From positions 256,001 to 320,000 of the forward strand of contig CAWGAA010000002.1 in NCBI GenBank assembly GCA_963820525.1: a stretch of 64,000 nucleotides of DNA, read 5' to 3'. A model generated the notes under the pieces. It saw only the letters and a list, made by a program, of their open reading frames with translations. It was not told the origin of the DNA and ran no database searches. Below, in pieces: positions 3,812 to 49,633 of this stretch. How positions within the stretch are numbered: the stretch's first letter is position 1; every line of letters starts with the position of its first letter. The stretch is from an uncultured Spirochaetota bacterium. GTDB lineage: Bacteria > Spirochaetota > Spirochaetia > SZUA-6 > Fen-1364. A program made the position numbers and the translations under genes.

Positions 3812-5004
3812 AGAACCTGAAGCTGATCGACCAGATACGGTTGAACCTCAAGACGTATACGATGATTTTCGCCCTGCTTGCGATCTGGCTCCTCTTCGGG
3901 ACCCTGACTAATTGGATCTTCTTCTCCCCCCGAAACCTCTCCAACCTGTTCCGCCAGATGACCATCATCTCGTTCCTGGCCATCGGGATGGTCATCGTCA
4001 TCGTCACCGGCAATATCGACCTGTCGGTGGGCTCGGTCACCGGGTTCGTCGGCGTGATCGCCGCGTACCTGCAGGCCATCGTGTTCGCGAAGATCCTGCC
4101 CGGCCTGATGCCCCACGCCTCCCTCCTGGAGGTCGCCATCGTCTCCACCGCGCTCACGGTCGTTCTCTGCCTTGTGGTGGGCAGCGCGATCGGGATGCTG
4201 CAGGGCGCCGTGGTCGCCTTCATGAACGTGCCTGCGTTCATCGTAACCCTCGGCGGGCTCCTGATCTTTCGCGGCGGCATCCTGGGCATCACCCAGGGAA
4301 AGACGATCGTGCCGATCGAAGAGCCGTTCAAGCAGATAGCGCAGGGCTATCTCTCCGGCCCGGTCGGTCTTATCCTGGCCGGCGTCGTCATCGTCATCAT
4401 CTTCGCCTTCACCTTCTGGAACCGACGGCAGAGGAGAAACTACGGTTTTGTCCTGCAGCATCTGTACCTCGACCTGCTGAAGGCCGGGCTCTTTTCCCTG
4501 GCGGTTCTGCTCTACGTCGTCATCATGAACATGTACCAGGGGGTGCAGAACCCCGTGCTGCTGATGGCTGTTGCGGCGGTCTTCTTCAGCTACGTCACCA
4601 ACAATACGCGCTTCGGCAGGTACGCGTATGCCATCGGCGGCAACAAGGAGGCGACGAAGCTCTCCGGCATCAACATCCAGCTCAATGTCTTCAAGGTGTT
4701 CATCCTCATGGGTTTCCTCTGCGCCGTGGCGGGGATCGTCCTCACCGCCCGGGTCGCCGCCGGAACGATTTCCGGCGGCCAGAACTACGAGCTGTCCGCC
4801 ATAGCGGCCTGCGTCATCGGCGGCACGAGCCTGATGGGCGGGGAGGGCACCATATTCGGCGCCATCGTCGGCTCGCTGATCATGGCCAGCCTGGAGAACG
4901 GCATGAGCGTGATGAACATGGACATCTTCTGGCAGTACATCATCCGTGGGCTCGTTCTCATCTTCGCAGTTTACGTGGACGTCGCCTCCAAGAAGAAGCG
5001 ATAG
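3808..5004 (+). CDS. xylH: Sugar ABC transporter permease
   Basis: IDLSVGS, VPAFIVTLGG, TRFGRYAYAIGGN, YELSAIAACVIGG; ATGA overlap with xylG stop. Confidence 0.9.
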   Translation: MKNLKLIDQIRLNLKTYTMIFALLAIWLLFGTLTNWIFFSPRNLSNLFRQMTIISFLAIGMVIVIVTGNIDLSVGSVTGFVGVIAAYLQAIVFAKILPGLMPHASLLEVAIVSTALTVVLCLVVGSAIGMLQGAVVAFMNVPAFIVTLGGLLIFRGGILGITQGKTIVPIEEPFKQIAQGYLSGPVGLILAGVVIVIIFAFTFWNRRQRRNYGFVLQHLYLDLLKAGLFSLAVLLYVVIMNMYQGVQNPVLLMAVAAVFFSYVTNNTRFGRYAYAIGGNKEATKLSGINIQLNVFKVFILMGFLCAVAGIVLTARVAAGTISGGQNYELSAIAACVIGGTSLMGGEGTIFGAIVGSLIMASLENGMSVMNMDIFWQYIIRGLVLIFAVYVDVASKKKR

Positions 5005-5091
5005 CTCTGGACGGCGGATCCGAAAGCTTGGCAAGGCCGACGATGTCATCGCAAAGCGGAAAGGTGTACGATGACGGGGCGGCGAGCGGTC

Positions 5092-5841
5092 ATGAAAGAG
5101 AACGAGTATGCGTGGCAGAGCGGATCCGGCCCCGCTGCCATTTCGGCCTCGGAGATCCATCTCTGGCGGATTTCCCTGGAACAGAGTCAGGACCGTATCC
5201 TGATCCTCCGCGGAACCCTCTCCCCTGACGAGAGACGGATGGCAGAGGCCTTCCGCGCCGAGAAGGACAGATCTTCCTTCTGCCTCTGCCGCGGCTTTCT
5301 TCGGATGCTTCTCGGCCGCTATAGCGACGCGGCCCCTGCGGAGGTTCGATTTCGCCGGGGGGAGTACGGAAAGCTTTCTCTGGATCCGCTTTTTCACCAG
5401 GAAGACATAGAGTTCAATCTCTCCCACTCGGGGTGCGTGGCCTTTTTTGCTCTAGCGAGGGAACGGCGGCTCGGTGTGGACGTGGAGAAGATCCGCACGA
5501 CCGCCGGAATCGGCGACATATCCCGCGGTTTTTTTTCACCGGAAGAGGACGGGGCGATCCGTGCCCTGCCGGAGGGAATGAAGGCCGATGCGTTCTACGC
5601 CTGTTGGACGCGAAAAGAGGCGGTGGTCAAAGCGCTCGGCGGAAGCATCGCGAAGCTCTCGGGCAAAGTCATCGTCTCTACGTCTCCCGGCCAGCCCGCG
5701 AGGCTTCTCCGGATGCCCTGTGGGCGTGGAAAAAACAGCGAGTGGCGCCTTCATGACCTGCCTGCGGGTGAGAGATACGCGGCCGCCTTGTGCTACGAAG
5801 GTCCGCAGGCCGCGGTTTTTCTATGGGAACCGGACGAGTGA
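5092..5841 (+). CDS. Sfp/HetI-type 4'-phosphopantetheinyl transferase
   Basis: LSPDERR, GEYGKL, FNLSHSG, LGVDVEK, FYACWTRKEAVVKALG motifs. Confidence 0.92.
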   Translation: MKENEYAWQSGSGPAAISASEIHLWRISLEQSQDRILILRGTLSPDERRMAEAFRAEKDRSSFCLCRGFLRMLLGRYSDAAPAEVRFRRGEYGKLSLDPLFHQEDIEFNLSHSGCVAFFALARERRLGVDVEKIRTTAGIGDISRGFFSPEEDGAIRALPEGMKADAFYACWTRKEAVVKALGGSIAKLSGKVIVSTSPGQPARLLRMPCGRGKNSEWRLHDLPAGERYAAALCYEGPQAAVFLWEPDE

Positions 5842-5875
5842 TCCATGAGAGTGGCTCATCCTTCCGGGGACGCAG

Positions 5876-6154
5876 TCACGAGGCCGTCGGCGGGGGCGAC
5901 GTATTGAGACCAGCGTGGCGGGAGTAGAGCCGGTAGGCATCGCCCACCGTCTTCACGTTCCAGGCTTCTTCGAAAGGGATGCCGATGCCTTCCTCCCCCA
6001 AATGCAGCAGCATCTCCACCAGCCGGATCGAATCAACGGACAAGTCTTGGACAAAGGAGGCTTCAGGTACGACTTGGCTCTCCTCCACCTGCAGCTCCCG
6101 GGCAATCAAACGCCGGAACTCTTCAAAGGGGATGGGGTCACCGGGGTTTTTCAC
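5876..6154 (-). CDS. Acyl carrier protein
   Basis: Small acidic protein with PEASFVQDLSVDSIRLVEM (Ppant serine in DS) and VKTVGDA; GTG start overlapping the ligase stop. Confidence 0.88.
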   Translation of the reverse strand: MKNPGDPIPFEEFRRLIARELQVEESQVVPEASFVQDLSVDSIRLVEMLLHLGEEGIGIPFEEAWNVKTVGDAYRLYSRHAGLNTSPPPTAS

Positions 6155-7776
6155 GTCGTGCCTCCTTTCAAATCCTGGAGTGCCATGGCGCGCATCTTGA
6201 ACTTTTGCGATTTGCCCATTTCCGCCTGGGGAAACTCACTCATGAAGCGCACCTGGCTGGGGATCTTGTAGGGCTCCAGAGATCTCCGGCAATAGTCCAG
6301 AACTTCCTGGACCGTCATCTCTGCGCCTTCCTTCAACCGGAGAAAAGCCCATACACTCTCCCCTCCCACCGCCGCCGGCACGCCCACCACCGCCGCCTCT
6401 CCAATCTTGGGGTGGGCAGCCAGGAAGCTCTCGATCTCCGTCGGATAGATATTCTGCCCGCCGCGTATGATGAGATCCTTCTTGCGCCCCACGATGCGCA
6501 GGTAGCCCTTCTCATCGATCGTGGCAAGGTCTCCCGTATAAAGCCAGCCTCCTTCATCGATTACCTCGGCGGTCAGCTCGGGGGCCTGGTAGTAGCCAAG
6601 CATCACACCATCGCCGCGGATGGCCAATTCCCCCACCTGACCAGGCGGAAGGTCGCGTCGGCTCTCATCCACGATTCTGACCTCGATCCCGGCCATCGGA
6701 CGGCCTACTGTCTCGGCCTGTTGGGCGTCGGAATCGGCCAGACTGCCGCAGGCGATCCCTCCCGCGGCCTCGGTCATGCCGAAACCGATATAGACGGCGC
6801 AGTTGAAGCGCTGCTGGATCTCCCGAGCCAGAGAAGGCGGGCACGGCGCGGCCCCGGTTCCACAGACGAGCAGGGATGAGGTGTCAAAGCGGTCCAGGTC
6901 CGGCAGCCCCAGCATAGCCTGATATGCCGTCGGTACCGCCACCAGGACCGTCACCCGCTCTTGTTCCACGAGTGCCAACGCCTCTTGTGGATGGAACTGG
7001 GGCATGGCTACCAGACGGTCGCCCATCAGCAGTCCCTGGAGCATGACATGCAGCCCGGTGATGGAATGCCAGCCAACGGTGGAAAGGAAGGTCTGCGGCC
7101 GGCCGATAGAGCGGAGCAGGCGGGTCCGATAGCGGGCAAGGGCCTTCGCCACCTCCACCACTTTCCTCAGGCTGGAGGGGCGCGACCACAGCTCACGCAC
7201 CTTGAGACTCGCCACAACGGGCGCGATCAGGCTGCTGTGGGTGTGCATTGTCGCCTTGGGCTTGCCGGTGGTCCCCGAAGTGTAGAGGAGGGCCAGGAGG
7301 TCGCCCGGCGCCACCGCGACTGGAGGCAGGATGGTGGGGCCCGCGTTCATGAGCGCAGCCAGCGTGAGACCGCTGCGCTCCTCGCCTGCCAGGATGACGT
7401 GGCGAAGGCCGGCAGCCTGCCGCAGTACCTCACCTTCGACGGAACGCGTCGTCACGAGCGCCAGAGGCTCGGCGTCGCTCAATATATCGCTCAACCCGCG
7501 CTCGCGCAGCTGGGGATTGAGAGGGACGATGACCGCGCCCAATGTGGCCACGGCGAAGAACAGGTAGACGAACTCGGGCCCCGGCGGCAGAAGGGCCACG
7601 ACCTTGTCCGCTTTCCGTATGCCGAGTCCGACAAGGCCGCGGGCCAGAGCGTTGATCCGCTCAAGCAACTGCCCGTTGGTGAGCCGCGTCGGGCCGCAGA
7701 CCAGCACTTCCTGGTCGGGGCGGGCCTCACTGATCAGCCGAATCGCTTCGCCCATCGTCAGCTTGGCGTTCAGCAT
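6151..7776 (-). CDS. AMP-forming acyl-CoA/acyl-ACP ligase
   Basis: YTSGTTGKPK, GFGMTE, GWLYTGDL, GRKKDLIIRGGQNIYP, C-terminal MGKSQK; RBS GGAGG. Confidence 0.92.
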   Translation of the reverse strand: MLNAKLTMGEAIRLISEARPDQEVLVCGPTRLTNGQLLERINALARGLVGLGIRKADKVVALLPPGPEFVYLFFAVATLGAVIVPLNPQLRERGLSDILSDAEPLALVTTRSVEGEVLRQAAGLRHVILAGEERSGLTLAALMNAGPTILPPVAVAPGDLLALLYTSGTTGKPKATMHTHSSLIAPVVASLKVRELWSRPSSLRKVVEVAKALARYRTRLLRSIGRPQTFLSTVGWHSITGLHVMLQGLLMGDRLVAMPQFHPQEALALVEQERVTVLVAVPTAYQAMLGLPDLDRFDTSSLLVCGTGAAPCPPSLAREIQQRFNCAVYIGFGMTEAAGGIACGSLADSDAQQAETVGRPMAGIEVRIVDESRRDLPPGQVGELAIRGDGVMLGYYQAPELTAEVIDEGGWLYTGDLATIDEKGYLRIVGRKKDLIIRGGQNIYPTEIESFLAAHPKIGEAAVVGVPAAVGGESVWAFLRLKEGAEMTVQEVLDYCRRSLEPYKIPSQVRFMSEFPQAEMGKSQKFKMRAMALQDLKGGTT

Positions 7777-7786
7777 GGCGGCCTCC

Positions 7787-8927
7787 TCACAGCTTCATCC
7801 GGTATAAACGGTAGTGTTTATAAAGCTCGGCACCCCGGCCCCGGGCGATGAGGTTGATCGTGGGGTTCAACTCGGAAGTAAGGGAACCATCGAGCCATTT
7901 ATAGCCCTTCCCCTTGGCCGTTCTCAGCGCTTGCAAGCAGAGCAGAGCATCGATGCCCCGCCGGCGGTATTCCTCCAGGACGCCCATCAGCTTGAACGAG
8001 ACGACGTCGACCTCGCGGATGTAGCGTTTGATCTTGAGCCAGTTGAAGGGAAAGAGCTGCCCGTCGAGGCGGATGAGCACGCGATTGGTGTCGGGGATGA
8101 GGACGCAGAAGCCCACCGCTTTGCCCTCTATCTCGGCGATGAGCGCCAGGTCCTGGTCCAGGAAAGGCCGCATCTGATCGGCAAGGCGCCGGAACTCGGC
8201 CTCGCTGAGCGGGACAGCGTCGGGAATCTGGCTCATCTGTGGCATTGAAGAGGCAGCGTATGATGGATACCTCACGATCCCAGTCCCCCATACGTATCCT
8301 GCGGATGGTGGTATTGCCCACCCGTTGGGCGACATCGGCCGCGCGGGTAATGCCGGATGGACCGCCTTTGAGCTCGTTGCCGACCTGCTCGAAAGTGGCC
8401 CGCCAGGCGTAGAGGTCATGGTCCTTTTCCATCCCATAGCGTTCCAGGAAATCCTTATAGTAGGCCGGCGTGTGGGCTTCCAGCATCGCGGGCGGGTAAT
8501 CGGTGCCCGCGATCAGCACGCCGGGGCAATCGTTGTCACCGAAGCTGGTCGGGCCACGCAGCGACGTCATGCCGTGGGCGCGCAACCATTCGCGGCAGAC
8601 GTCCAGCAGCTGCCTGGCAACTTCGAACTCATTGACGACCTCGAAGAAGCCGAAGCCGCCCTCCGCCAGGCACATGTTCGCGACGCGGGAGTGGTCGACA
8701 AAGGCGGCAATGGTCCCCAGCTCTTCCCGGCCCCGCCGGGCCATGAAGAGGGCGACGTCAGCCTGTTTGTAGAAAAGGCCCCTGGACGGATCGAGGTATT
8801 CGAGGCGCTCGGAGATTAAAGGAGGTACCCAGTTGCGGTCACCCTTGTAGACCCGCCACGGGAATCTGATAAAGGCTTTCCGGTCACGTTGAGTGGTGAC
8901 GAGGTGGATCTCAACGGATTCGCTCAC
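7787..8927 (-). CDS. YghO-like GNAT-fold N-acyltransferase (bacterial ceramide synthase-like); one-base frameshift at ~8238
   Basis: N-half FPWRVYKGDRNWVPPL, GFGFFE, LRGP, PAYYKDFLERYGMEKDHDL and C-half GFCVLIPDTN, LFPFNWLK, MGVLEEYRRRGIDALL, YKHYRLY join if one base is removed at ...aat gcc aca G atg agc cag...; GTG start after GGGGAG. Confidence 0.8.
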
Positions 8928-9093
8928 TGCCGCTCCCCATTTTCGCTCACCATCCTCACTATGGCCCATGCTAACCGGAAAATGCAATCCTGAAAAGCAA
9001 GCGTCGTTGCCGTCATACTCGGCACTCTCTGACGGCCCGCCGTCGTCACGGTACAATTGCCTACGCGCGGGCTCTGTCAGGAGGCGTTCCATA

Positions 9094-9690
9094 GTGAAAG
9101 AGCCTGGTTCTTCCCTCTTCGCTTTCTTCTCCCTCCCCGCCGTGACAGCCAATCGCGGCGGCATGGTCACATCCTGGAATCGAGCGGCAGAGAGTTTGTG
9201 GAGCCTTCCGGCGGAGAAAGCCCTCGGGCGGCCTCTCGAGGAGCTGATCCAGGTCGGGCCGGGAATCGCGCTTTCCCAGATCATCCAGGCGGTCGGAGAG
9301 CGAGGGTCATGGATGGGGGAGTGCACGCTGGGCGCCCCAGGGGGCCGCTCGGTCAGGGGGATATTGGCCGCCGGTTCCTTCGGTCCTCGCGGACACAGTG
9401 GGCGGGGAATTGCCCTTTTCTTTCTTGAAAACGGTGGATTCAGTGGCGCCGCGGAGGCGCCCGGGGAGGGCGAAAACCGATACCGAAGCATTTTCAGGCT
9501 TCCCGGCGTATCAATTTGGGAAGAGGACATCTCGGAGCTTCAGGGGGCGCTGAGAGAGCTGAAGGAGCAGGGGGTGCGGGATCTGAGAAGGTACCTGGAC
9601 GAGCACCCCGAGTTCATCGAAAACGCCGCCGGCATGATCAAAGTAATCGACGTCAATGACCACACGCTCCAGCTCTTCGAGGCGCGGAGC
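9094..9690 (+). pseudogene. Truncated multi-PAS sensor protein (5' fragment)
   Basis: RBS AGGAGG; PAS motifs VTSWNRAAESLW and RYRSIF..PGVSIWEEDIS...IKVIDVND; breaks off mid-domain, stop at 9717 lies inside unrelated sequence. Confidence 0.7.
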
Positions 9691-10148
9691 AATTGTACGA
9701 TACAGTCGCGACCGTAGTACATTGGATCGAAGATCCGACGACGGACGCCACATGGGAAAATACTCTGGTCATCGTTATGGCGGATCACGAAACCGGCTGC
9801 CTTTCCGCCGCCCCCGGAGCTTTCCCCGATGCGCCGCTGGGGGAGGTGAGCCCGCGCACACTGACCCTTGAGAAGCCGTTGGACACGGGGCGGAGAGCGA
9901 GCTGGGAAGATGCGGACGGCAACGGCGCGATCGACGCGGGAGAGGCGGTTTATTGGGCGTGGAACACCTCCGGCCATTCCAACTCCCTGATCCCCTTGTA
10001 CGCGAAAGGCGCCGGTGCCTCTTTGTTCCAACAGTACGCGAATCGGAACGATCCGCGGCGAGGCGCATACATTGACAACACGGATGTATTTAAAGTGATG
10101 AACGCTGTGACCCACGGTTGGGGTGAACCCTCGGGCCTCACCGATTGA
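9687..10148 (+). pseudogene. Alkaline phosphatase C-terminal fragment
   Basis: TLVIVMADHETG metal-binding motif, TSGHSNSLIPLYAKG, IDNTDVF; N-terminal catalytic half absent. Confidence 0.75.
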
Positions 10149-12348
10149 AGTAGAACCACACGATCATGGATGCAATGAAGAAACGGTAGCGGGAAGACGC
10201 GGCCAGGCGGTGGTTCGCGATCGTGCCGGAGAATACTCGAGAGAGCTCGACTCCGTCGCAGCGTATTGCCAGCCGTCCGAGGACATCCGCCGCCTGGTCA
10301 GTGAACTCGTCTCCCCGCCGGGCGGCGTTTGAAGCCAGCTCCTTCAAGGGCGAGTAATCCCTCCGCGATTCCCTCTCCCTTTCTGCGATGAAGTCGAGAA
10401 GGCGCGCCGTTCCGCCTGAGGGCGCCTCGAGAAACTCGGAGAAAAGCGGATAGAACCACTCTCCCATCCCCAGGATGCCCGCGATGGAGAGGATGAGCTC
10501 CTCTCTCAGGTGCTGGGAAAGGCGTCCGCTCGCCTTCTGGAGAAGCACCTCTACGGATGAGGCGTCGCGGAAGATTTCCATGGCCGCGGCCCCATGGATG
10601 ATGAGGCGCGGATTGTCGGTCCTCTGCACGATCCCGCGGATGGCGGCGAGGCTGTCGCGATCCGCCAGCCGGGCGAGGGAAACCATGCATTTTCCTGCCA
10701 GGAAGTAGTCCCGGGACGCGAGGCCCTGGCGGAGGGCTTTCAGGCTGTCGCGGACCGCTTTTTCCCCCAGGATCTCGGCAGCGATATAGGCGGTCGTGAA
10801 TGGGTGGTCCCGCACCTCGGCGATGAGCGCCCTGTTCACGCGCTTATCCACCGGAAGGGCCCTCAAGGCGTTGAGCGCGGCGGTCCGGATGATGAAGCGG
10901 GGAGAGGCGAGCTTTCCCAACAGCTGCCCGATGGAGACCTCCGACTGCGATTGGGCCAGCGCGTCGATGACGCTCTGCTCCTCGCGGATGCTCTGCGATC
11001 GTCCCAACCGCCGAAGGAGGGACAGCGCCCGCATGTCGCGGGGGGAAAAGATGATTCCGATGGAATCCCTGATCGAGTAGCTTCCGATATTCTCGAGGCT
11101 CGAGACCAGGAGGAAGGTGGCCGTGCTCAAGGCAACCACGAAAGCGAAAAACAGGCGATACAGCTCGGCGGGGTGCCACGAGGTGATTTTCTGAAGCCAT
11201 TCGAGGAATGCCCCGCCGGCCAGGGCGCCCGCGGCGCCCGACACCCCCGCGACGATCTGGTAGAGGATGCCGAGGTTGAGGTTCTCCCGCGAGCTGACGA
11301 TGGAGAAGAAATAGGTCTGGGCGGCGTTTCCCGCGCCCGATGCCCCAAGGGAGAAGAGGAAGAACACTCCCGCGGCCAGCAGCCACCACAGAAAGGGGGA
11401 AGGAAGGGGAGGAGAGGCGATCAAGGGGACCAGGCCGATCGTGGCGGCGACCATGAAAAAGAAGAAGAGGGGCTTCGAGCCGAGCCTGTCTATCGTGAGG
11501 CCGCTGGCCAGTGCCATTGCGATGGCGCCCAGCCCGCCGATCACGGTGAGGATCATGGCCTGGGAATCGCTTGCCCCGTAGACCTCTTTCATGGCAACGA
11601 TGAGGAAGGGGCCCGCCATGGATGTCACGAAGACGACGGCGAACAAGGAAGCGATGAAGCGGGTGAAGCTGCCGCTCACGAAGGCCTTCCGCGTTGTTGC
11701 GAGCACCCCTTCGGATCCTCGCGTCGAAAACTCCCGAGGCTCGGGGAGCTTGAAGACGAGGTACGCCGCATACAAACCGGAGAGGATTCCCACCGCGAAG
11801 AATGCGGCGTACATGCCCAGGGGGGCGGTTTCCCCCAGAAGCAGGGCCATGGCAACGCCGACCAGCGGCGCGGAGATGTTCACCAGCAGTTGGATGAAGG
11901 AGATGTACTCTCCGCGGTCCTTGTGTCCCGCAAGCTCCGCGAGGATGGGGTTGAAGGTAGTGACGGCGATGCCCCGGGCGACATTGAATCCCAGCACTCC
12001 GATTACGAGCAGGTCCATGGACAAGCGATGGAAGCCGGTAAGCGCCAGGGGAGGGGAGAAGAGCAGGGGGAGCATCAGCACGTAGCGAAGCACCCAGAAG
12101 ACCCCCATGAGGGTCGTCGCCTTCATGCGGGGCACGAGAGGCCGTCCCAGGAGCACCATGACGGGAGAAAGGCTGGTGAACGCGGAAAGCGCGCCGATGA
12201 GGAAGCTCCCCGCGCCCAGGCGAAGGGCGTACAGCGTGATGATGTTCCCGCTCAGGAGCTGAAAAGAGGCGGTGTTGAGGACATTGAAGAGCGAAAACAG
12301 CTTCCTGCCGTTCGCGATCTCCGCGGGCGACAATCGCTTTACGCGCAT
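10138..12348 (-). CDS. MFS transporter fused to C-terminal HEAT-repeat domain
   Basis: ~12 hydrophobic segments with G..IDRLGSKP motif, followed by ~300 aa helical region with HEAT-like repeats (IRTAALNAL, AAEILGEK, KCMVSLARL). Confidence 0.75.
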   Translation of the reverse strand: MRVKRLSPAEIANGRKLFSLFNVLNTASFQLLSGNIITLYALRLGAGSFLIGALSAFTSLSPVMVLLGRPLVPRMKATTLMGVFWVLRYVLMLPLLFSPPLALTGFHRLSMDLLVIGVLGFNVARGIAVTTFNPILAELAGHKDRGEYISFIQLLVNISAPLVGVAMALLLGETAPLGMYAAFFAVGILSGLYAAYLVFKLPEPREFSTRGSEGVLATTRKAFVSGSFTRFIASLFAVVFVTSMAGPFLIVAMKEVYGASDSQAMILTVIGGLGAIAMALASGLTIDRLGSKPLFFFFMVAATIGLVPLIASPPLPSPFLWWLLAAGVFFLFSLGASGAGNAAQTYFFSIVSSRENLNLGILYQIVAGVSGAAGALAGGAFLEWLQKITSWHPAELYRLFFAFVVALSTATFLLVSSLENIGSYSIRDSIGIIFSPRDMRALSLLRRLGRSQSIREEQSVIDALAQSQSEVSIGQLLGKLASPRFIIRTAALNALRALPVDKRVNRALIAEVRDHPFTTAYIAAEILGEKAVRDSLKALRQGLASRDYFLAGKCMVSLARLADRDSLAAIRGIVQRTDNPRLIIHGAAAMEIFRDASSVEVLLQKASGRLSQHLREELILSIAGILGMGEWFYPLFSEFLEAPSGGTARLLDFIAERERESRRDYSPLKELASNAARRGDEFTDQAADVLGRLAIRCDGVELSRVFSGTIANHRLAASSRYRFFIASMIVWFYFNR

Positions 12349-34350: not shown

Positions 34351-35073
34351 TCAGAAGTGCCGTGCGCCGAAGGCGCGCAGAAGATCGTCGATCTCGACGA
34401 GGCCCTGTATCTTGAAAGGCTCGCCAAAGCGTTTTCCTATCAGCCTTCCGAAGTGCGCGGCCCTCGCCTGGAGGAGCTCCCAGAAGTGCTTGCTGGAAAT
34501 GTAGGTCTCGGCTTCGCCGCCCTTGTACGATTCACTGTAGACCTGGCTCTCGTAGCAGCGGATGGCCCGCTCTTTCTCCTCAATGAAATCTGAGATGTCC
34601 ACGACGAAGCTCGGCTCGAACTCCCAGGTGTGCATGTAAAAGACAAGCTCGGAGGGACGGTGCGGCTCCTGGCCCGTGTCCAGTCTGGTCAACCCGGCCA
34701 GGAACGCGGCTTCCTGCACGATGCGGGAGGCGGCGACATGATCCGGGTGGCGGTCTTCCCGCCAGTGGGAGAGCACGATCGTGGGGCGAAGCTCGCGGAT
34801 CTCGCGCACGACCGCCAGCCGGGAAGCTTCATCGTCGGCGAGGCGCCCGTCCGGAAGCGAAAGCATCTTGTGACGCAAGAGGCCCATGAGATCGGCGGCC
34901 CTGTCGAACTCAAGCGCCCTCTGCTCGACGGATCCCCGGGTGCCCATCTCGCCCCGGGTCAGGGTGACCACCGCCGTGGCCGCTCCCCCGCGGGCGGCCC
35001 TGAGAAGCGTTCCGCCGGCGGCAAGCTCGACGTCGTCGGGGTGTGCGCCGAACGCGAGAATGTCGACTTTCAT
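34351..35073 (-). CDS. bshB1: Bacillithiol biosynthesis deacetylase (PIG-L family)
   Basis: MKVDILAFGAHPDDVEL, LTRGEMGTRG, DRHPDH, FLAGL; overlaps bshC. Confidence 0.88.
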   Translation of the reverse strand: MKVDILAFGAHPDDVELAAGGTLLRAARGGAATAVVTLTRGEMGTRGSVEQRALEFDRAADLMGLLRHKMLSLPDGRLADDEASRLAVVREIRELRPTIVLSHWREDRHPDHVAASRIVQEAAFLAGLTRLDTGQEPHRPSELVFYMHTWEFEPSFVVDISDFIEEKERAIRCYESQVYSESYKGGEAETYISSKHFWELLQARAAHFGRLIGKRFGEPFKIQGLVEIDDLLRAFGARHF

Positions 35074-36698
35074 TCGGGCAGCCTCACGGCCCGATGCTCC
35101 GCGGCAAAGGGGTCGATTCGCCGATAGATGGAATCGATCACGGCCTCGCCGTATCGGGCCAGGAATGGGGGGAGGCAGAGGGTCCGCTCCTGAAGCCCGT
35201 TTCTGGGATAGAGGGAGGCGATGATGCGTTCAATCCGCGCGCGAAGCACCTCGTCCTTCCTTTTCGCCGCCTTGATGATCTTCCTCTCCATGAAATCAAA
35301 CTGCTTTCTGCTTCTGCCGGCGGCGTTCCGCGCCGTAGGCCTCAAGGTCTGCTCGAAAGAGCCCACCTCGTCGATCACGCCTCCCCAGATAGCGGCCACC
35401 TCGTCCTTTGCCTGGGAAAGCCGCTGGAAAAGCGATGGAGGGACTTCCTTTCTTGCCAGATCGTCGAGGAGCTTTTCCTTTCGCGATGCCACGTCCGCCA
35501 GGGTGGGGCCGAGCCTGTCGAGGAGCTTCCCCACCTTCGGCTCGATGATAGTGAGGGAAGCCCGCGGGAAGAGAACGGGCATCGGAATGCCTGTCTGCTG
35601 GTACGCTTCGGTGAGCTGGGAGAAGTAGGCGAGCTCCGCGGGCCCCAGGACCACCGCGGCGGTTGGAAAGAGGGTATCCTGGAACAGCGGCCTGAGTGCG
35701 GCATTGGGCGTGAGCTTTTCCGGATGCTCCTCCAGCACGGCCAGCATCTCGGCGCGGGACAAACGCCGCGAGTCGCCCTTGAGCTGGAATCCATCGGGGC
35801 TCACGACGATAGCCTGCCGTGCCGGGTCCTGGTAGAAAAGGGTGAGCATCCCCTCGCGAAGCTCGATCTGCGCCGGGTAGCCGCGCACGGCCAGGCGCTC
35901 CGTCTGCCTGATGACGGCGCGGGCTACGGGCCCGTCTTCCTCGATTTCGCCGCGGAAGAGGCTGGACGCGGCGAGCTTCAGACGCCGGTCCGACGGGTCC
36001 ACCATGGCGATTCCCCGGTCACTCAGGCAATGCTGCATCCATGTCCCGAAGGCGTGCGGGAAGGTGGAGCCGGGCGAGTAGGCCTTTCGAAGCCGGGCCA
36101 TCACCGGAGAGGCGAACTGGGAGCCGGCGAGCGCGGCATCCAGCGCGGCGAGGGCGTCATCGATCCCACCGCCAAGTGCGATCCGCGAGACAGGCAGGTT
36201 TTCGGTCAGCGAGAGCTCGAGAGGAATCTCTTGAAGCCTGCCCCCGGAGTCGAGCGCGAAGGCGCGATTCACTTCGGCGAGATCGCTGTCTTCCGATGCG
36301 ATCCAGAAGACGGGAACCACGGGGCAGTCCAGCGCGGACTCGAGGTGCGCGGCAAGGGCGAGGATCGTGAGCGCCTTGTTCAGGGTATAAAGGGGACCGC
36401 CGAACAGGCCGGCCTGCTGCCCTCCAATCACGACAAGGGATCGGGGATCGGCGAGCCTCTCGATGTTCTGTCGTGTGCGCGGGCCCGCGGAAAACCGCTC
36501 GTTCTGCTCCCTCATCACGGTAACGAGCGTTCCCCGGTCGTATCCCCTGCGGCGCACCAGCTCGGCCTGCTCCTGGAAGGCCCCGGGGTCCTTGAAGTGG
36601 CGGGGAACGAGAGACCGGAAGCTCTCCGCCGCCTCCCAGCAGTCCATGAGGATGCTCCTGCCCGGGTACAGCTCCCGCAGGGGAATGGAATCCGCCAT
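35070..36698 (-). CDS. bshC: Bacillithiol biosynthesis cysteine-adding enzyme
   Basis: GGQQAGLFGGPLYTLNK, FWIASED.D..EVN, PNAALRPLFQD, GPAELAYF, LQER. Confidence 0.92.
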   Translation of the reverse strand: MADSIPLRELYPGRSILMDCWEAAESFRSLVPRHFKDPGAFQEQAELVRRRGYDRGTLVTVMREQNERFSAGPRTRQNIERLADPRSLVVIGGQQAGLFGGPLYTLNKALTILALAAHLESALDCPVVPVFWIASEDSDLAEVNRAFALDSGGRLQEIPLELSLTENLPVSRIALGGGIDDALAALDAALAGSQFASPVMARLRKAYSPGSTFPHAFGTWMQHCLSDRGIAMVDPSDRRLKLAASSLFRGEIEEDGPVARAVIRQTERLAVRGYPAQIELREGMLTLFYQDPARQAIVVSPDGFQLKGDSRRLSRAEMLAVLEEHPEKLTPNAALRPLFQDTLFPTAAVVLGPAELAYFSQLTEAYQQTGIPMPVLFPRASLTIIEPKVGKLLDRLGPTLADVASRKEKLLDDLARKEVPPSLFQRLSQAKDEVAAIWGGVIDEVGSFEQTLRPTARNAAGRSRKQFDFMERKIIKAAKRKDEVLRARIERIIASLYPRNGLQERTLCLPPFLARYGEAVIDSIYRRIDPFAAEHRAVRLPE

Positions 36699-45205: not shown

Positions 45206-47122
45206 TCATTTCGCGAAAAGCTCCTCGATATCTTTTTGATGTCTCTGGTTGATCACATCCCGCTTCATCTTCAGCGATGCGGTGAGCTCCACGCCCTCCT
45301 CGAAGTGCTTGAGCAGGATCTTGAAGCGGAACACCCTCTCGAATCCACGGAACCCCCGCTTTGCACAGACGCGGGAGTTGATCTCGTCGGAGATGAGCTC
45401 GTAGATCAGGGCGTTTTCAAGCAGGTCCTCACTGGTCACGGAGGAGATCTGTTTCTCCTCGGCGAATTTTTCTACGGCCTCCCCGTTGACGACAACCAGG
45501 GCGGCCAGGAATTTCTTGTCCTGGCCGAGCACCATCACCTGGTCGATGAACTCGCTCTCCAGGATCGTGTCCTCGATCGGAACCGGCTCCACGTTCTCGC
45601 CGCCCAGGAGTACGATCGTTTCCTTGACCCTGCCGATGATCCTGATCTCGCCCTTGTGGGTCATGATCCCAAGATCCCCCGTGTTGAGCCAGCCGTCGGG
45701 CGAGAGGACTTCTGCGGTCTTGTCCGGCCGCTTGTAGTAGCCCTTCATGATGTTGGGCCCCTTCAGGTAGATGACCCCCTTGCGGCCGGGAGGCACGGGC
45801 ATGCCGGATTCGGGGTCCAGGAGCCGGATCTCCATCTCCCGAAGCACGGGGCCTATGGTCCCGATCACGGGCCGTTTCTCCAGCCGGACCGAAGCCACCG
45901 GCGCCGTCTCGGTGAGGCCGTAGCCTTCCAGGAGCAGGATGCCGACGGCCTGGAAGAACCTGTCCACGTGCGGGGGAAGCGCGCCGCCTCCCGAGACGGT
46001 GAAGCGGAACTTGCCTCCCAGCCGCGCCCTGACCTTGGAGAACACGAGGAGGCTTCCCAGCGCGCGAAACGGCGCAAGCAGGAGGAAGGGCAGGATGCCG
46101 AGCAGGAAATCCAGCACGCGGAAGCGGCGCACGTATTGAGGGTAGAGCCCCTTGACCAGTGCCGTTGCCGTCGTGTGCGCCTCTCCTACCCAGACGAAGA
46201 AGTGGAAGAGGGCCCTCTTGATGCCGCCCTCCTCGTTCGCGTTGCGGTAGACGGCCGTCCGCACGAGCTCCCAGAGCCGCGGGATCGATGCCATGACGGT
46301 GGGCTTCACCGCGGCCATGTCGGCGAGCATGATCTTTCCCACGCGCTTGGAGTATGCCATCCCGCAGCCGTTTCGAAGCACGATGTATTCGACGGTTCGC
46401 TCGAAGGAGTGCCAGACCGGAAGCACGGAGAGGAAGAGGTCTCGGTTGTCGATGTAGATACAGTAGGGAACCGTTGTGCGCAGGTTGTGAAGGAAGTTGC
46501 CATGGGTCAGCATCACTCCCTTCGGCTCTCCCGTCGTGCCGGAGGTGTAGATAAGAGTTGCGAGGTCATCCGCCTTGCCCATCTCCACCTCGCGCTGATA
46601 CGCATGGGGGTCTTTGGCAAGCCGGGAAGCGCCCATTTCCATGATCTGGCTATAGGTGAGAAATCGAAGGCCTGCGGCCGAAGCGGAGATCCCTTCGGGC
46701 TTGAAATCCTCATCCATCACGATGATCGAGGAGAGCGCCGGCAGCTCGCTCTTTCGCGAGAGGATCTTCTTCACCTGCTCTTCGTTTTCGGCGAGCGTGA
46801 CGGTGCAGTCGGCGTGGTTGAGGATATAGCGCATCTCGTCGGGCATCGTGTCCGAACCCCGGGGGACGTCGGCCGCTCCGATTCCGAGGATGCCGAGATC
46901 AGCGATGATCCATTCCTTCTGGTTGTCCGAGATGATGCCGACGTGGTCTCCCCGCTTCACCCCGAACTCCAGGAGCCCCGCGCCGAAGCGTTCGAAGAGC
47001 GATGCAAGCTCGCTGTACGAGATGGACTGCCAGTCGCCGGCCTTGTCCTTGTACATCAATGCGACGCTCGCCGGCTGTCTTTGCGCGACAGACTGGACGA
47101 CCTTTACCACGGTGTTGTCCAT
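45206..47122 (-). CDS. fadD: Long-chain fatty acid--CoA ligase
   Basis: YTSGTTGEPKGVMLTH, LPVWHSFER, EGYGLTET, GWLNTGDLG, GRVKETIVL.GGENVEP. Confidence 0.9.
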   Translation of the reverse strand: MDNTVVKVVQSVAQRQPASVALMYKDKAGDWQSISYSELASLFERFGAGLLEFGVKRGDHVGIISDNQKEWIIADLGILGIGAADVPRGSDTMPDEMRYILNHADCTVTLAENEEQVKKILSRKSELPALSSIIVMDEDFKPEGISASAAGLRFLTYSQIMEMGASRLAKDPHAYQREVEMGKADDLATLIYTSGTTGEPKGVMLTHGNFLHNLRTTVPYCIYIDNRDLFLSVLPVWHSFERTVEYIVLRNGCGMAYSKRVGKIMLADMAAVKPTVMASIPRLWELVRTAVYRNANEEGGIKRALFHFFVWVGEAHTTATALVKGLYPQYVRRFRVLDFLLGILPFLLLAPFRALGSLLVFSKVRARLGGKFRFTVSGGGALPPHVDRFFQAVGILLLEGYGLTETAPVASVRLEKRPVIGTIGPVLREMEIRLLDPESGMPVPPGRKGVIYLKGPNIMKGYYKRPDKTAEVLSPDGWLNTGDLGIMTHKGEIRIIGRVKETIVLLGGENVEPVPIEDTILESEFIDQVMVLGQDKKFLAALVVVNGEAVEKFAEEKQISSVTSEDLLENALIYELISDEINSRVCAKRGFRGFERVFRFKILLKHFEEGVELTASLKMKRDVINQRHQKDIEELFAK

Positions 47123-47314
47123 GGCTCCTCCCTTATCCGCGCGCAATCCAGCGCGGAATTTCGCTTCGGGCCGATTAGCGAAAAAGCGAACTCTCGGAAT
47201 GAGGTCGAATCATGGCAAGAGTACCATGGCAGGAGTGTGCGGTCAAGAAAATCCGGGTGAGCGGTGATTGCCCCGCCGAGGATTCCGCGCGCGCTTCCAG
47301 GCCCCGCGGGGGCG

Positions 47315-48508
47315 TCACGAGATGACGCCGAGCTCCTTTCCCACCTTCGCGAAGGCCCGCACGGCGCGCTCGAGGTCCTGCTGCTGGTGGAGGGCGGAGA
47401 TCTGCACGCGGATCCGCGCCTGGCCCTTCGGCACCACAGGGTAGCTGAACCCCACGACGAAGATCCCCTCGGCAAGGAGGCGGCTCGCCATCTCGGCGGC
47501 AAGCTTCTCGTCGGAGAGCATGATCGCAGCGATCGGATGGCTGCCCGGCTTGAGGGTGAAGCCCGCTTCGGCAATGGCCTTTCTGAAGAAGCGGGCGTTG
47601 CGTTCCAGCCTATCCCGCAGCGTCGTGCTCGCGATGAGGATGTCGAGCACTGCGATGGTGGTGGCGGCCACCACCGGGGCGAGGGTATTGGAAAAAAGGT
47701 ACGGCCTCGACTTCTGGCGGAGGAGCTCGACGATCTGCCGGCGTCCTGAAAGGCAGCCGCCCGTGGCCCCGCCAAGGGCCTTGCCGAAGGTCGTGCTGAT
47801 CGCATCCACCCGATCCATGACGCCGTGGTATTCCGCGGTCCCCCTTCCCGTTTTCCCGATGAATCCCGTCGCGTGGCTGTCGTCAACCATCACCAGGGCC
47901 CCGTGCCGCTCGGCAAGGTCGCAGATCTCGGGAAGCTTCGCCATGTCGCCGTCCATGGAGAACACGCCGTCGGTCGCGATCATGCGGATGCGGGCCGCCT
48001 CTGATTCCTTCAACCTCTGCTCCAGGGCCCCCATATCAGAGTGCTCGTAGATGAGCCTTTGGGCCTTCGCCAGCCGGGCGCCGTCTATGATGGAAGCATG
48101 GTTGAGCTGATCCGTGATCAGGGCGCAGTCCTTGTCCAGGAGGGGCTCGAAGACACCTGCGTTGGCGTCGAAGCAGGAGGAGAAGATGATCGTGTCCTCG
48201 GTGCCGAGGAAGGCCGACAGCCTCCGCTCCAGCGCCTTGTGCACCTCCTGGGTTCCGGCGATGAACCTCACCGAGGCCATTCCGTAGCCCCACCGCTCCA
48301 GGGCGCGCTTGGCGGCCTTCACGACGCGGGGATCCGAGGCGAGGCCGAGGTAGTTGTTCGCGCAGAAGTTGAGGGCTTCGCGTCCCCCCACGCGGATGTT
48401 CACGCCCTGAGGGGTCTCGATGACCCTCTCCTCCTTGAAGAGCCCGGCCGCATGGATCTCCTCCAGCCGTGCCTCCAGCTCCTTCTTCAGTCCCTCATTC
48501 ATCGTCAT
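47315..48508 (-). CDS. kbl: 2-amino-3-ketobutyrate CoA ligase (glycine C-acetyltransferase)
   Basis: [45 protein letters not shown]; adjacent to tdh. Confidence 0.95.
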
Positions 48509-49532
48509 CCTCCGCGATCTCGAGGATCACCTTGCCGCAGTTTCCGGACAGCATCGTATCGAAGCCCTTCTGGAACTCGTCGAAGGGGAAGCTGTGGGTC
48601 AGCACCGGCCGCACATCGAGGCCGCTCTGGAGCATTGTCTGCATCTTGTACCAGGTCTCGAAGATCTCCCGTCCGTAGATCCCCTTGATCGTCAAGCCCT
48701 TGAAGATCACCTGGTCCCACCGGATCCCCGTCTCGTTGGCCAGGATGCCCAAAAGCGCGATCCGCCCGCCATGGTACATGCTCTCCAGCATCGTCTCGAA
48801 GGCGCCGCCGTTGCCCGACATCTCCAGTCCCACGTCGAATCCGATGATTCCCAGCCCCTTCATCGCCTCGGCGATGGAGCTCTTCGATACGTTCACCGCC
48901 AGGGTGGCCCCCATCTTTCGGGCAAGCTCCAGGCGATAGTCGTTCACGTCGGTCACCACGATGCGCTGCGCGCCGCAGTGGCGCGAGATGGCGCACGCCA
49001 TGACCCCGATGGGTCCCGCCCCCGTGATGAGAACGTCTTCCCCCACGAGGTCGAAGGAGAGGGCCGAGTGGGTGGCATTGCCCAGAGGATCGAGGAAGCA
49101 GGCGATCCGCGAGGGGATGGCCGGATGGACATGCCAGGCGTTGCCCGCCGGCAGGGAGAGGTACTCGGCAAAGCAGCCGTCCCTCTGCACCCCGATTCCC
49201 TTGGAGTTTGTGCAGAGGTGGCGGCGGCCGGCGCGGCAGCTCCTGCATACCCCGCAGACGATGTGCCCTTCCCCCGAGACCCTGTCCCCGATCTTGTACC
49301 CGCTGACGTTGGCGCCCATGTCCACGACCCTGCCGACGAACTCGTGTCCGACGATGAGGGGGGGATGAATGGTCAGCTTCGACCATTCGTCCCACGAGTA
49401 TATATGAAGGTCAGTTCCGCATATGGCGGCCTTGGTCACCTTGATCAGAAGATCGTTTCCGCCGATCTCGGGAACCGGCGCTTCCTCCATCCAGATCCCG
49501 CGTTCAGGCCGCTTCTTCATCAAAGCCTTCAT
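48495..49532 (-). CDS. tdh: L-threonine 3-dehydrogenase
   Basis: [47 protein letters not shown]. Confidence 0.96.
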
Positions 49533-49633
49533 GGGCCCATTATAAACCGCCTTCAGGCGGCGGCAAGGGAAGGCCAGGCGGTTGCCCAAAGTGCGCTTTC
49601 CTGATACCAGTACATCTTTGCGGAGGTAGCGCA

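Follow-up and report, generated by a model that had tools for sequence, protein, structure and literature searches.

Bacterial ceramide synthesis has been worked out only recently, in Proteobacteria. What, then, might a relative of ceramide synthase be doing beside its own acyl-activating enzyme and carrier protein in an uncultured wetland spirochaete? We addressed this question for a locus within a window of 64,000 nucleotides (G000:C2:256001-320000) taken from a genome of 5.05 Mb in 4 contigs with a completeness of 96.67%. The locus contains four genes, all of which are real. They encode a 4'-phosphopantetheinyl transferase (PPTase) of the Sfp type, a small acyl carrier protein (ACP), an adenylate-forming ligase, and a tandem-GNAT protein that, judging from its homology to E. 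coli YghO, is a member of the YghO/bacterial ceramide synthase (bCerS) family of N-acyltransferases. We refer to GNAT, ligase, and ACP together as the triad. The reading that we favor, with about even confidence, is that the cassette provides an accessory, ACP-fed N-acylation branch of a sphingolipid-type pathway and is not the core ceramide synthase. We regard the branch as accessory because the triad GNATs form a separate clade, because every triad genome contains at least two family members, and because one Chloroflexota genome (G322) harbors a gene cluster containing a serine palmitoyltransferase-like (Spt-like) gene in addition to a triad. In its spirochaetal host, the intact cassette probably makes an extra amide-linked membrane lipid.

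Organization of the cassette

Genes were called from a listing of open reading frames (ORFs) together with Pfam and NCBIfam scans (Table 1). A sequence-only reading of this DNA had described a minus-strand GNAT-ligase-ACP operon that converges on the PPTase gene, and had reported that genes for ketosynthases (KS), non-ribosomal peptide synthetases (NRPS), and fatty acid synthases (FAS) are lacking. Both descriptions stand. The ORFs, the 10-nt spacer, and a 4-nt overlap between the ligase stop and the GTG start of the ACP agree with such an operon, and Pfam found no KS, NRPS, or FAS domain in the 49 window ORFs or in five ORFs that were scanned separately. The stop codons of the PPTase and ACP genes face each other across 34 nt. 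The first ATG of the PPTase ORF lies at 5071; the earlier reading had set the start of this gene at 5092. GTG at 8927 is the start of the GNAT and agrees with the N-termini of its homologs. Base composition is unremarkable, and a promoter and terminator scan of positions 4900-10300 revealed nothing above shuffled expectation.

Table 1 Features of the cassette, in window coordinates
Feature	Position	Strand	Basis or remark
Sfp/HetI-type PPTase	5071-5841	+	Pfam ACPS, NCBIfam HetI; converges on ACP
Dedicated ACP, 92 amino acids	5876-6154	-	PP-binding, 37.4 bits
FadD-like adenylate-forming ligase, presumed ACP loader	6151-7776	-	AMP-binding and AMP-binding_C
10-nt spacer with GGAGG, GNAT stop to ligase ATG	7777-7786	-	Sequence letters
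GNAT C-terminal part, second GNAT domain, frame past the extra base	7787-8239	-	Acetyltransf_1, 24.4 bits
Single extra base splitting the GNAT frame in the assembly	8237	-	Contigs of public runs
GNAT N-terminal part, first, degenerate GNAT domain	8240-8927	-	Homology

Family, fold, and phylogeny of the GNAT

The intact homolog of the window GNAT, designated P0001, aligns with E. coli YghO over its full length (32% identity over 379 amino acids; E 9e-57). The two parts into which the window GNAT is divided in the assembly match YghO colinearly, the N-terminal part at residues 25-234 (30% identity; E 1e-28) and the C-terminal part at residues 243-390 (35% identity; E 7e-23). Passages of PMC9386255 give yghO (ECD_02850) as the homolog of Caulobacter CC_1154 ('aca', bCerS), an N-acyltransferase needed for dihydroceramide. 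Neither Pfam nor NCBIfam holds a curated model for the family: the N-terminal part of the window GNAT matches no model in either collection, and the C-terminal part gives only a weak Acetyltransf_1 match. At an E value of 1e-30 or better, 111 of 301 sampled Spirochaetota have YghO-type tandem-GNATs, and most of these proteins have no curated annotation model.

A search of the PDB yielded no sequence-level relative of the GNAT (best E 0.011). The AlphaFold2 model of P0001 predicts a tandem GNAT of ~380 residues (pLDDT 89.0; pTM 0.87). All top Foldseek matches of this model are likewise tandem GNATs, namely 5kf1 (glucosamine N-acetyltransferase), 7q3a (MAB_4324), 1ozp (the mycothiol synthase MshD), and 2wpw (clavulanate), with E values of 1e-13 to 1e-10 and TM-scores of 0.5-0.6 on the query. 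The predicted two-GNAT-domain fold would thus be common to the triad GNAT and these four proteins. The four enzymes, however, use acetyl-CoA and small polar acceptors, and their identity to the query is 9-15%.

The position of the GNAT within its family was examined in two maximum-likelihood trees. The first contained 28 rows; the second contained 27 and was built without the long-branched L087 and the genome's own C3:444291 and with the GNAT of the G322 Spt cluster. One branch places the triad clade, accompanied by L037, L078, and the genome's own paralog C1:2981800, on one side (support 100/99 with 28 rows; SH-aLRT 100 with 27 rows) and, in both trees, E. coli YghO and 8/8 Spt-adjacent or Spt-near GNATs on the other. 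The earlier description of this protein as a ceramide-synthase-like GNAT stands as regards family membership, given the full-length YghO homology. The same reading had named a position outside the bCerS/YghO clade as refuting, and the protein does lie outside the clade of YghO and the Spt-linked GNATs. This position nevertheless speaks for the undescribed product that the reading had suggested, since the triad GNAT is probably not an ordinary ceramide synthase. An approximately unbiased (AU) test that held the triad and Spt-linked rows as one clade (p 3e-9) was not used; it is uninformative because the group was named after the tree had been seen and because the interspersed paralogs of this genome were left out. 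Rooted on the sister group, the tree nests the triad GNATs of Spirochaetia inside those of Chloroflexota, which suggests transfer of the whole cassette to the extent that this root holds.

This genome encodes six members of the YghO family, and each of the 47 triad genomes encodes at least two. The five other paralogs of this genome have neither a ligase nor an ACP nearby. One of them, C1:441054, forms a sister lineage to GNATs encoded in GNAT-SDR-Spt operons (99/97 in the 28-row tree). Another, C1:2981800, adjoins an MFS sugar transporter and has no Spt link.

Conservation of the cassette

A scan with one genome per species yielded 80 loci, out of 98 confirmed relatives, and tblastn with the window proteins was used to sort these loci. 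GNAT, ligase, and ACP follow one another on one strand in 46 loci, and GNAT and ACP do so with no ligase between them in a further 13 (the Thermoflexales-type arrangement). Contig ends cut the remainder after GNAT-ligase in 6 loci and fall at the GNAT itself in 3; the GNAT is less than 50% identical to that of the window in 6 and truncated in 5; and in a single locus (L037) it stands alone with room downstream. Among the 60 loci with enough sequence, 59 encode an ACP after the GNAT or ligase, in Spirochaetia as well as in Chloroflexota. In all five Thermoflexales-type genomes examined, a ligase ortholog that is 55-57% identical lies elsewhere in the genome, the next best match being 38-43% identical. 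Hosts of the triad are Spirochaetia and, within Chloroflexota, Anaerolineae, Chloroflexia, Thermoflexia, and Caldilineae.

The sequence-only reading had asked whether the four-gene neighborhood is conserved in other genomes. The GNAT-ligase-ACP unit does recur in other genomes, but the PPTase gene is linked to it in just 4 of the 80 loci (L009, L012, L013, and L016), all from close Spirochaetia and all with the PPTase converging on the ACP. When flanking ORFs from 81 loci were clustered all against all, the only conserved genes were those of the triad and, in 5 loci, the PPTase gene; antisense shadow ORFs or generic families made up the other large clusters. One Spirochaetia metagenome-assembled genome carries two diverged triad copies (L009 and L023), 77% and 65% identical to P0001, with a PPTase at one of them.

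Ligase, ACP, and PPTase

The ligase scores above cut-off for both AMP-binding (272.4 bits) and AMP-binding_C (67.8 bits), which identifies it as an adenylate-forming ligase of the ANL type. Its best NCBIfam model is PRK06187, long-chain-fatty-acid--CoA ligase, at 401.9 bits against a cut-off of 476, and it falls below the cut-off of every NCBIfam model. The nearest solved chains are the fatty-acyl/feruloyl-CoA synthetases 8weu and 8wev, 4-coumarate ligase, and FadD13; malonyl-CoA synthetase and salicylate-AMP ligase are also among its solved relatives. Orthology to AasR was considered and rejected, the ligase being 28% identical to the fatty acyl-AMP ligase of E. coli BL21 over 468 columns with 18% gaps.

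The ACP exceeds the cut-off of 20.8 bits for PF00550 (PP-binding; score in Table 1) and falls under the cut-offs of all generic ACP models in NCBIfam. The Asp-Ser attachment site (D41 and S42) is invariant in 25 of 25 aligned relatives. Identity to AcpR is 32% across just 44 residues. In a predicted GNAT-ACP complex, modeled from alignments of both proteins, the median was 0.26, the mark being 0.32.

The PPTase matches PF01648 (ACPS) with 58.7 bits and PF22624 (AASDHPPT_N) with 26.2 bits, just under the cut-off of 27. HetI, its best NCBIfam model, aligns with residues 13-253 of 256 and scores 164.6 bits against a cut-off of 370. Like other enzymes of the Sfp/HetI type, it has two domains and ~250 amino acids and adjoins the carrier that it presumably primes. 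Unlike them, it scores under the HetI equivalog cut-off, resides in a genome without carriers of NRPS or polyketide synthase (PKS) systems, and is linked to its module only in the closest Spirochaetia. PP-binding and PPTase scans of the whole genome returned 3 PP-binding proteins, 2 PPTases (the other a 125-amino acid protein of the AcpS type), and no PKS or NRPS carriers. This census argues that the module is not part of a PKS/NRPS system and that the Sfp-type PPTase plausibly serves this ACP. It also bears out the earlier suggestion that the ligase and ACP form a private pair.

The Spt-like gene and its association with the triad

The sequence-only reading had correctly named kbl as the only alpha-oxoamine synthase gene of the window; its product is a true Kbl (560.6 bits, above cut-off). 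From the absence of an adjacent Spt gene that reading had gone on to suggest that the acceptor may not be a sphingoid base. This suggestion does not survive inspection of the whole genome, which encodes two more oxoamine synthases, one of them Spt-like and on the same contig and the other paired with cysteate synthase, nor does it fit the near restriction of the module to Spt-like genomes. The Spt-like gene is located at G000:C2:678934-680083, ~415 kb from the module, and its best NCBIfam model is the serine palmitoyltransferase NF047600. Six intact orthologs score 501-591 bits on this model, 120-150 bits above the BioF and Kbl models. Assignment of the gene as bioF was rejected on the strength of that difference and because no bioB, bioD, or bioA exceeds its cut-off in this 96.67%-complete genome.

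In other genomes, the Spt-like gene sits with genes for SDR proteins, epimerases, and YghO-family GNATs. The Chloroflexota genome G322 contains a compact SDR - YghO-family GNAT - NAD-epimerase - Spt-like cluster (L128:4028-8249), which looks like a full ceramide-type set, and carries its triad on another contig. In other Spirochaetota, two loci (L120:5427-13366 and L121:2100-10928) share the order LPG_synthase_TM - GT4 glycosyltransferase - PMT_2 - YghO-family GNAT - SDR - Spt-like - MacB/FtsX permease; in these low-GC spirochaetes, the operon may be a glycosyl-ceramide cluster equipped with an exporter.

Fifty genomes were reached through the loci, 47 of them with a triad. At 52% identity or above, 46 of these 47 have an Spt-like ortholog, two of them as fragments only; none of the three genomes with a lone or divergent GNAT has one. 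We also sampled 201 Anaerolineae, in which a triad-type GNAT was defined by at least 52% identity; adjacency was examined in 8 of the 15 genomes so identified, and 8 of the 15 overlap the 50-genome set. The Spt-like gene occurs in 14 of these 15 genomes versus 103 of the 186 others (Fisher one-sided p 0.003, uncorrected for kinship). Among 300 other Spirochaetota, 110 contain YghO-family members and 67 an Spt-like gene (E 1e-75 or better). None of the 300 contains an ortholog of this GNAT (best 35% identity), and the sample is therefore unusable as a within-phylum contrast for the module. Thus, the module is nearly confined to Spt-like genomes, and the Spt-like gene does not need the module.

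The remaining oxoamine synthase gene (C1:2311950) directly follows a cysteate synthase gene (TIGR03844, 514.7 bits, above cut-off) at G000:C1:2310520-2313065. We take this pair to resemble the first two steps of capnine sulfonolipid synthesis, presumably known otherwise from Bacteroidota. The pair is adjacent in 6 of the 50 related genomes, all of them Spirochaetia. Cysteate synthase was rejected as an explanation for the distribution of the module, since it is found in just those 6 genomes.

Proposed function of the cassette

These observations are consistent with a model in which the Sfp-type PPTase would convert the private ACP to its holo form, and the FadD-like ligase would adenylate its carboxylic acid substrate, which is most likely a fatty acid, before loading it onto the ACP. 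The tandem-GNAT, a bCerS paralog, would then take the acyl group off the ACP thioester and attach it to an amine. That amine would most likely be a long-chain base or a derivative thereof, supplied by the distant Spt-like enzyme; in this lineage, a capnine-like base from the cysteate synthase/oxoamine synthase pair may serve instead. This would yield N-acyl lipids of a second class beside those made by the other YghO-family paralogs. Acyl-ACP is proposed as the donor because the adjacency of GNAT and ACP persists even where the ligase has moved. We infer in this scheme that acyl-ACP is used over acyl-CoA, that the substrate is a fatty acid and the acceptor a long-chain base, and that the PPTase is specific for this ACP.

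The proposed branch has points in common with known systems and departs from each of them. Like E. coli YghO and Caulobacter CC_1154, the triad GNAT is a ~380-amino acid soluble tandem-GNAT with homology to YghO along its full length, and it occurs in genomes with an Spt-type enzyme. It belongs to a clade separate from YghO and all sampled Spt-linked GNATs, and it is accompanied by further family members in the same genomes. Passages of two reports describe bCerS as an 'acyl-CoA N-acyltransferase' (PMC9386255) and as a cytoplasmic peripheral membrane acyltransferase (PMC11087976). Unlike bCerS, the window GNAT shares its operon with a ligase and an ACP of its own and not with spt and cerR, and its use of acyl-ACP is presumed. 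The AasR-AcpR-Spt system of Rhodobacteria, as described in parts of PMC9386255, also relies on a dedicated adenylate-forming ligase that loads a dedicated small ACP for lipid synthesis, an arrangement that is predicted here. In contrast to that system, there is no acpR-spt operon at this locus: the ACP is tied to the N-acyltransferase, the Spt-like gene lies elsewhere and is widespread without the ligase-ACP pair, and the ligase resembles FadD and 4-coumarate ligase. Literature searches, judged in part from abstracts, returned no description of a ceramide-synthase relative paired with its own ligase or ACP.

Several points weigh against the accessory N-acylation branch. Neither the triad genome G340 nor G434, whose GNAT is of the triad type, has an Spt-like match, and the Spt-like gene lies within ~7 kb of the triad in just 1 of 80 loci (L018). 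The raw counts overstate the co-occurrence, since the Spt-like gene has a high base rate (117 of 201 Anaerolineae) and the genomes are related. The Spt-like proteins score under the curated NF047600 cut-off of 640 bits, and a frameshift within short runs of A and C (~679,115) interrupts the Spt-like gene of this genome, although this break is likely another assembly indel. The nearest solved folds of the GNAT acetylate sugars or thiols, not lipids, and E. coli YghO is the single named bCerS-family reference in the tree, the Caulobacter and Bacteroides enzymes having been left out. A fatty acid substrate is not assured, since aryl-acid ligases (feruloyl, 4-coumarate, and salicylate) are among the nearest solved relatives of the ligase. 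Finally, donor, acyl group, and acceptor are each inferred.

One alternative, which we consider unlikely, is that the locus belongs to an ordinary ceramide pathway with a different gene order, with the GNAT acting as ceramide synthase and the ligase and ACP in the functional roles of AasR and AcpR, feeding acyl-ACP to the distant Spt-like enzyme. The GNAT does belong to the YghO family, and nearly all triad genomes (46/47) do contain an Spt-like gene. There is also precedent in the record of E. coli BL21, where yghO adjoins aasR-epi-acpR-spt, that is, genes for a fatty acyl-AMP ligase, an epimerase, an ACP, and Spt; the window GNAT resembles BL21 yghO in having a ligase and an ACP alongside. 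Moreover, aasR may sit far from acpR-spt in Sphingomonadaceae, according to passages of PMC9386255. An ordinary ceramide synthase, however, would be expected to group with its kind, and the triad clade stands apart from YghO and all 8 Spt-linked GNATs. Another paralog exists in 47/47 triad genomes and lies inside the Spt cluster in G322; in this genome, the paralog C1:441054 groups as sister (99/97) to the GNATs found in GNAT-SDR-Spt operons. Of the genomes lacking a triad, 103 of 186 Anaerolineae and 67 of 300 Spirochaetota contain the Spt-like gene. The ACP stays by the GNAT and never by the Spt-like gene, and the ligase is just 28% identical to AasR, with many gaps.

We consider it rather unlikely that the cassette is an amide-forming system independent of sphingolipids, in which the acyl group is passed to some other amine (an amino acid, polyamine, amino sugar, or small molecule) and the Spt-like gene co-occurs through shared ancestry and habitat. 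The separate clade of the triad GNATs would fit such a system, as would the lack of an Spt link in their nearest relatives L078 and C1:2981800, the absence of an Spt gene inside 8 kb in 79 of 80 loci, and the high base rate of the Spt-like gene in Anaerolineae. So would the nearest folds, those of a glucosamine N-acetyltransferase, mycothiol synthase, and a clavulanate tandem GNAT; these sugar and thiol acetyltransferases, however, are just 9-15% identical, whereas the kin of the GNAT by sequence is an N-acyltransferase that acts on long-chain bases. Shared ancestry and habitat would also have to account for nestedness in two phyla (46/47 triad genomes; 14/15 versus 103/186).

A non-lipid product, formed if the ligase activates an aromatic or short carboxylic acid that the GNAT passes to a metabolite or protein, appears improbable. 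Feruloyl-CoA synthetase, 4-coumarate ligase, malonyl-CoA synthetase, and salicylate-AMP ligase are indeed solved relatives of the ligase, which lies under the cut-off of every NCBIfam model; yet its best model represents a long-chain fatty-acid ligase subfamily (401.9 bits), the only functionally annotated sequence relatives of the GNAT are lipid N-acyltransferases, and no conserved aromatic-acid or secondary-metabolite genes lie beside the module.

Returning to the accessory ACP-fed branch, we put forward a broader proposal more tentatively, as somewhat less than an even chance. The cassette would represent a second, carrier-dependent route of N-acylation for sphingolipid-type, perhaps sulfonolipid-type, lipids, in which a ceramide-synthase paralog is fed by a private, ligase-loaded ACP and not by acyl-CoA. 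It would have moved horizontally between Chloroflexota and wetland Spirochaetia and, in abundant uncultured anaerobes, would give lipids either an unusual N-acyl chain or a second amide bond. If this proposal is true, the cassette would provide a documented ACP-dependent member of the ceramide-synthase family. In any case, it is small and clonable, and it is a concrete candidate for the means by which such organisms select or diversify their N-acyl chains. Passages of PMC11334938 report Spt-like proteins in 218 Chloroflexota metagenome-assembled genomes and unusual ceramides in anoxic water that track Anaerolineae; the acylating enzymes for these ceramides lack assignment there, and the cassette offers a candidate.

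The GNAT reading frame

The frame break in the window GNAT falls between residues 230 and 232 of the homologs, as judged by alignment to intact proteins, which are 378-387 amino acids long. The N-terminal part is 79% identical to residues 3-232 of P0001 and the C-terminal part 85% identical to residues 230-379. The sequence-only reading had named a real frameshift as a refuting outcome. We compared Logan contigs of four public runs (X1, X3, X4, and X5) over window positions 5000-9100; those of X4 and X5 do not reach 8237. The extra base is left out in both covering runs, X1 (depth 5.36/5.36) and X3 (11.8/11.8). The X1 contig (943 nt) shows no further difference across 924 bases, and X1 may be the sample behind the genome assembly. 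The X3 contig (6063 nt) has 44 further differences across 1118 bases; it is roughly 4% divergent and thus comes from a related strain, in another study. Since neither contig contains the extra base, the break is most likely an assembly error and the GNAT intact. That the GNAT is truly broken in this strain and the cassette decaying is very improbable: the site is not a homopolymer in the assembly and the Spt-like gene of the same genome is split too, but both covering contigs lack the base (one being otherwise identical over 924 bases), the GNAT has no second lesion and retains 79-85% identity to intact homologs, and the Spt-like break sits in short homopolymer runs, a common place for assembly errors.

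The same comparison revealed a depth spike at 7192-7328, within the ligase gene, in all four runs and with many loose ends. It is probably a conserved stretch that draws contigs of unrelated organisms and not a feature of the locus.

Other features of the window

Upstream of the GNAT, contigs of the other runs have a gap of 2 bases at 8940 and carry one additional base behind 9030. The ~1.2-kb interval between the GNAT and an MFS gene (8930-10140) has no Pfam match at 1e-7. Two plus-strand ORFs in this region (8893-9717 and 9693-10148) we take, by eye alone, to be a PAS-domain fragment and a C-terminal fragment of an alkaline phosphatase. Elsewhere, the Pfam scan identified a protein of the Borrelia_P83/100 family. 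At 34354-36698, BshC adjoins a PIG-L deacetylase, which places genes for bacillithiol-type thiol synthesis in a spirochaete. A second AMP-binding ligase of 646 amino acids, containing AMP-binding_C_3, is encoded on the minus strand directly upstream of kbl-tdh (45209-49589).

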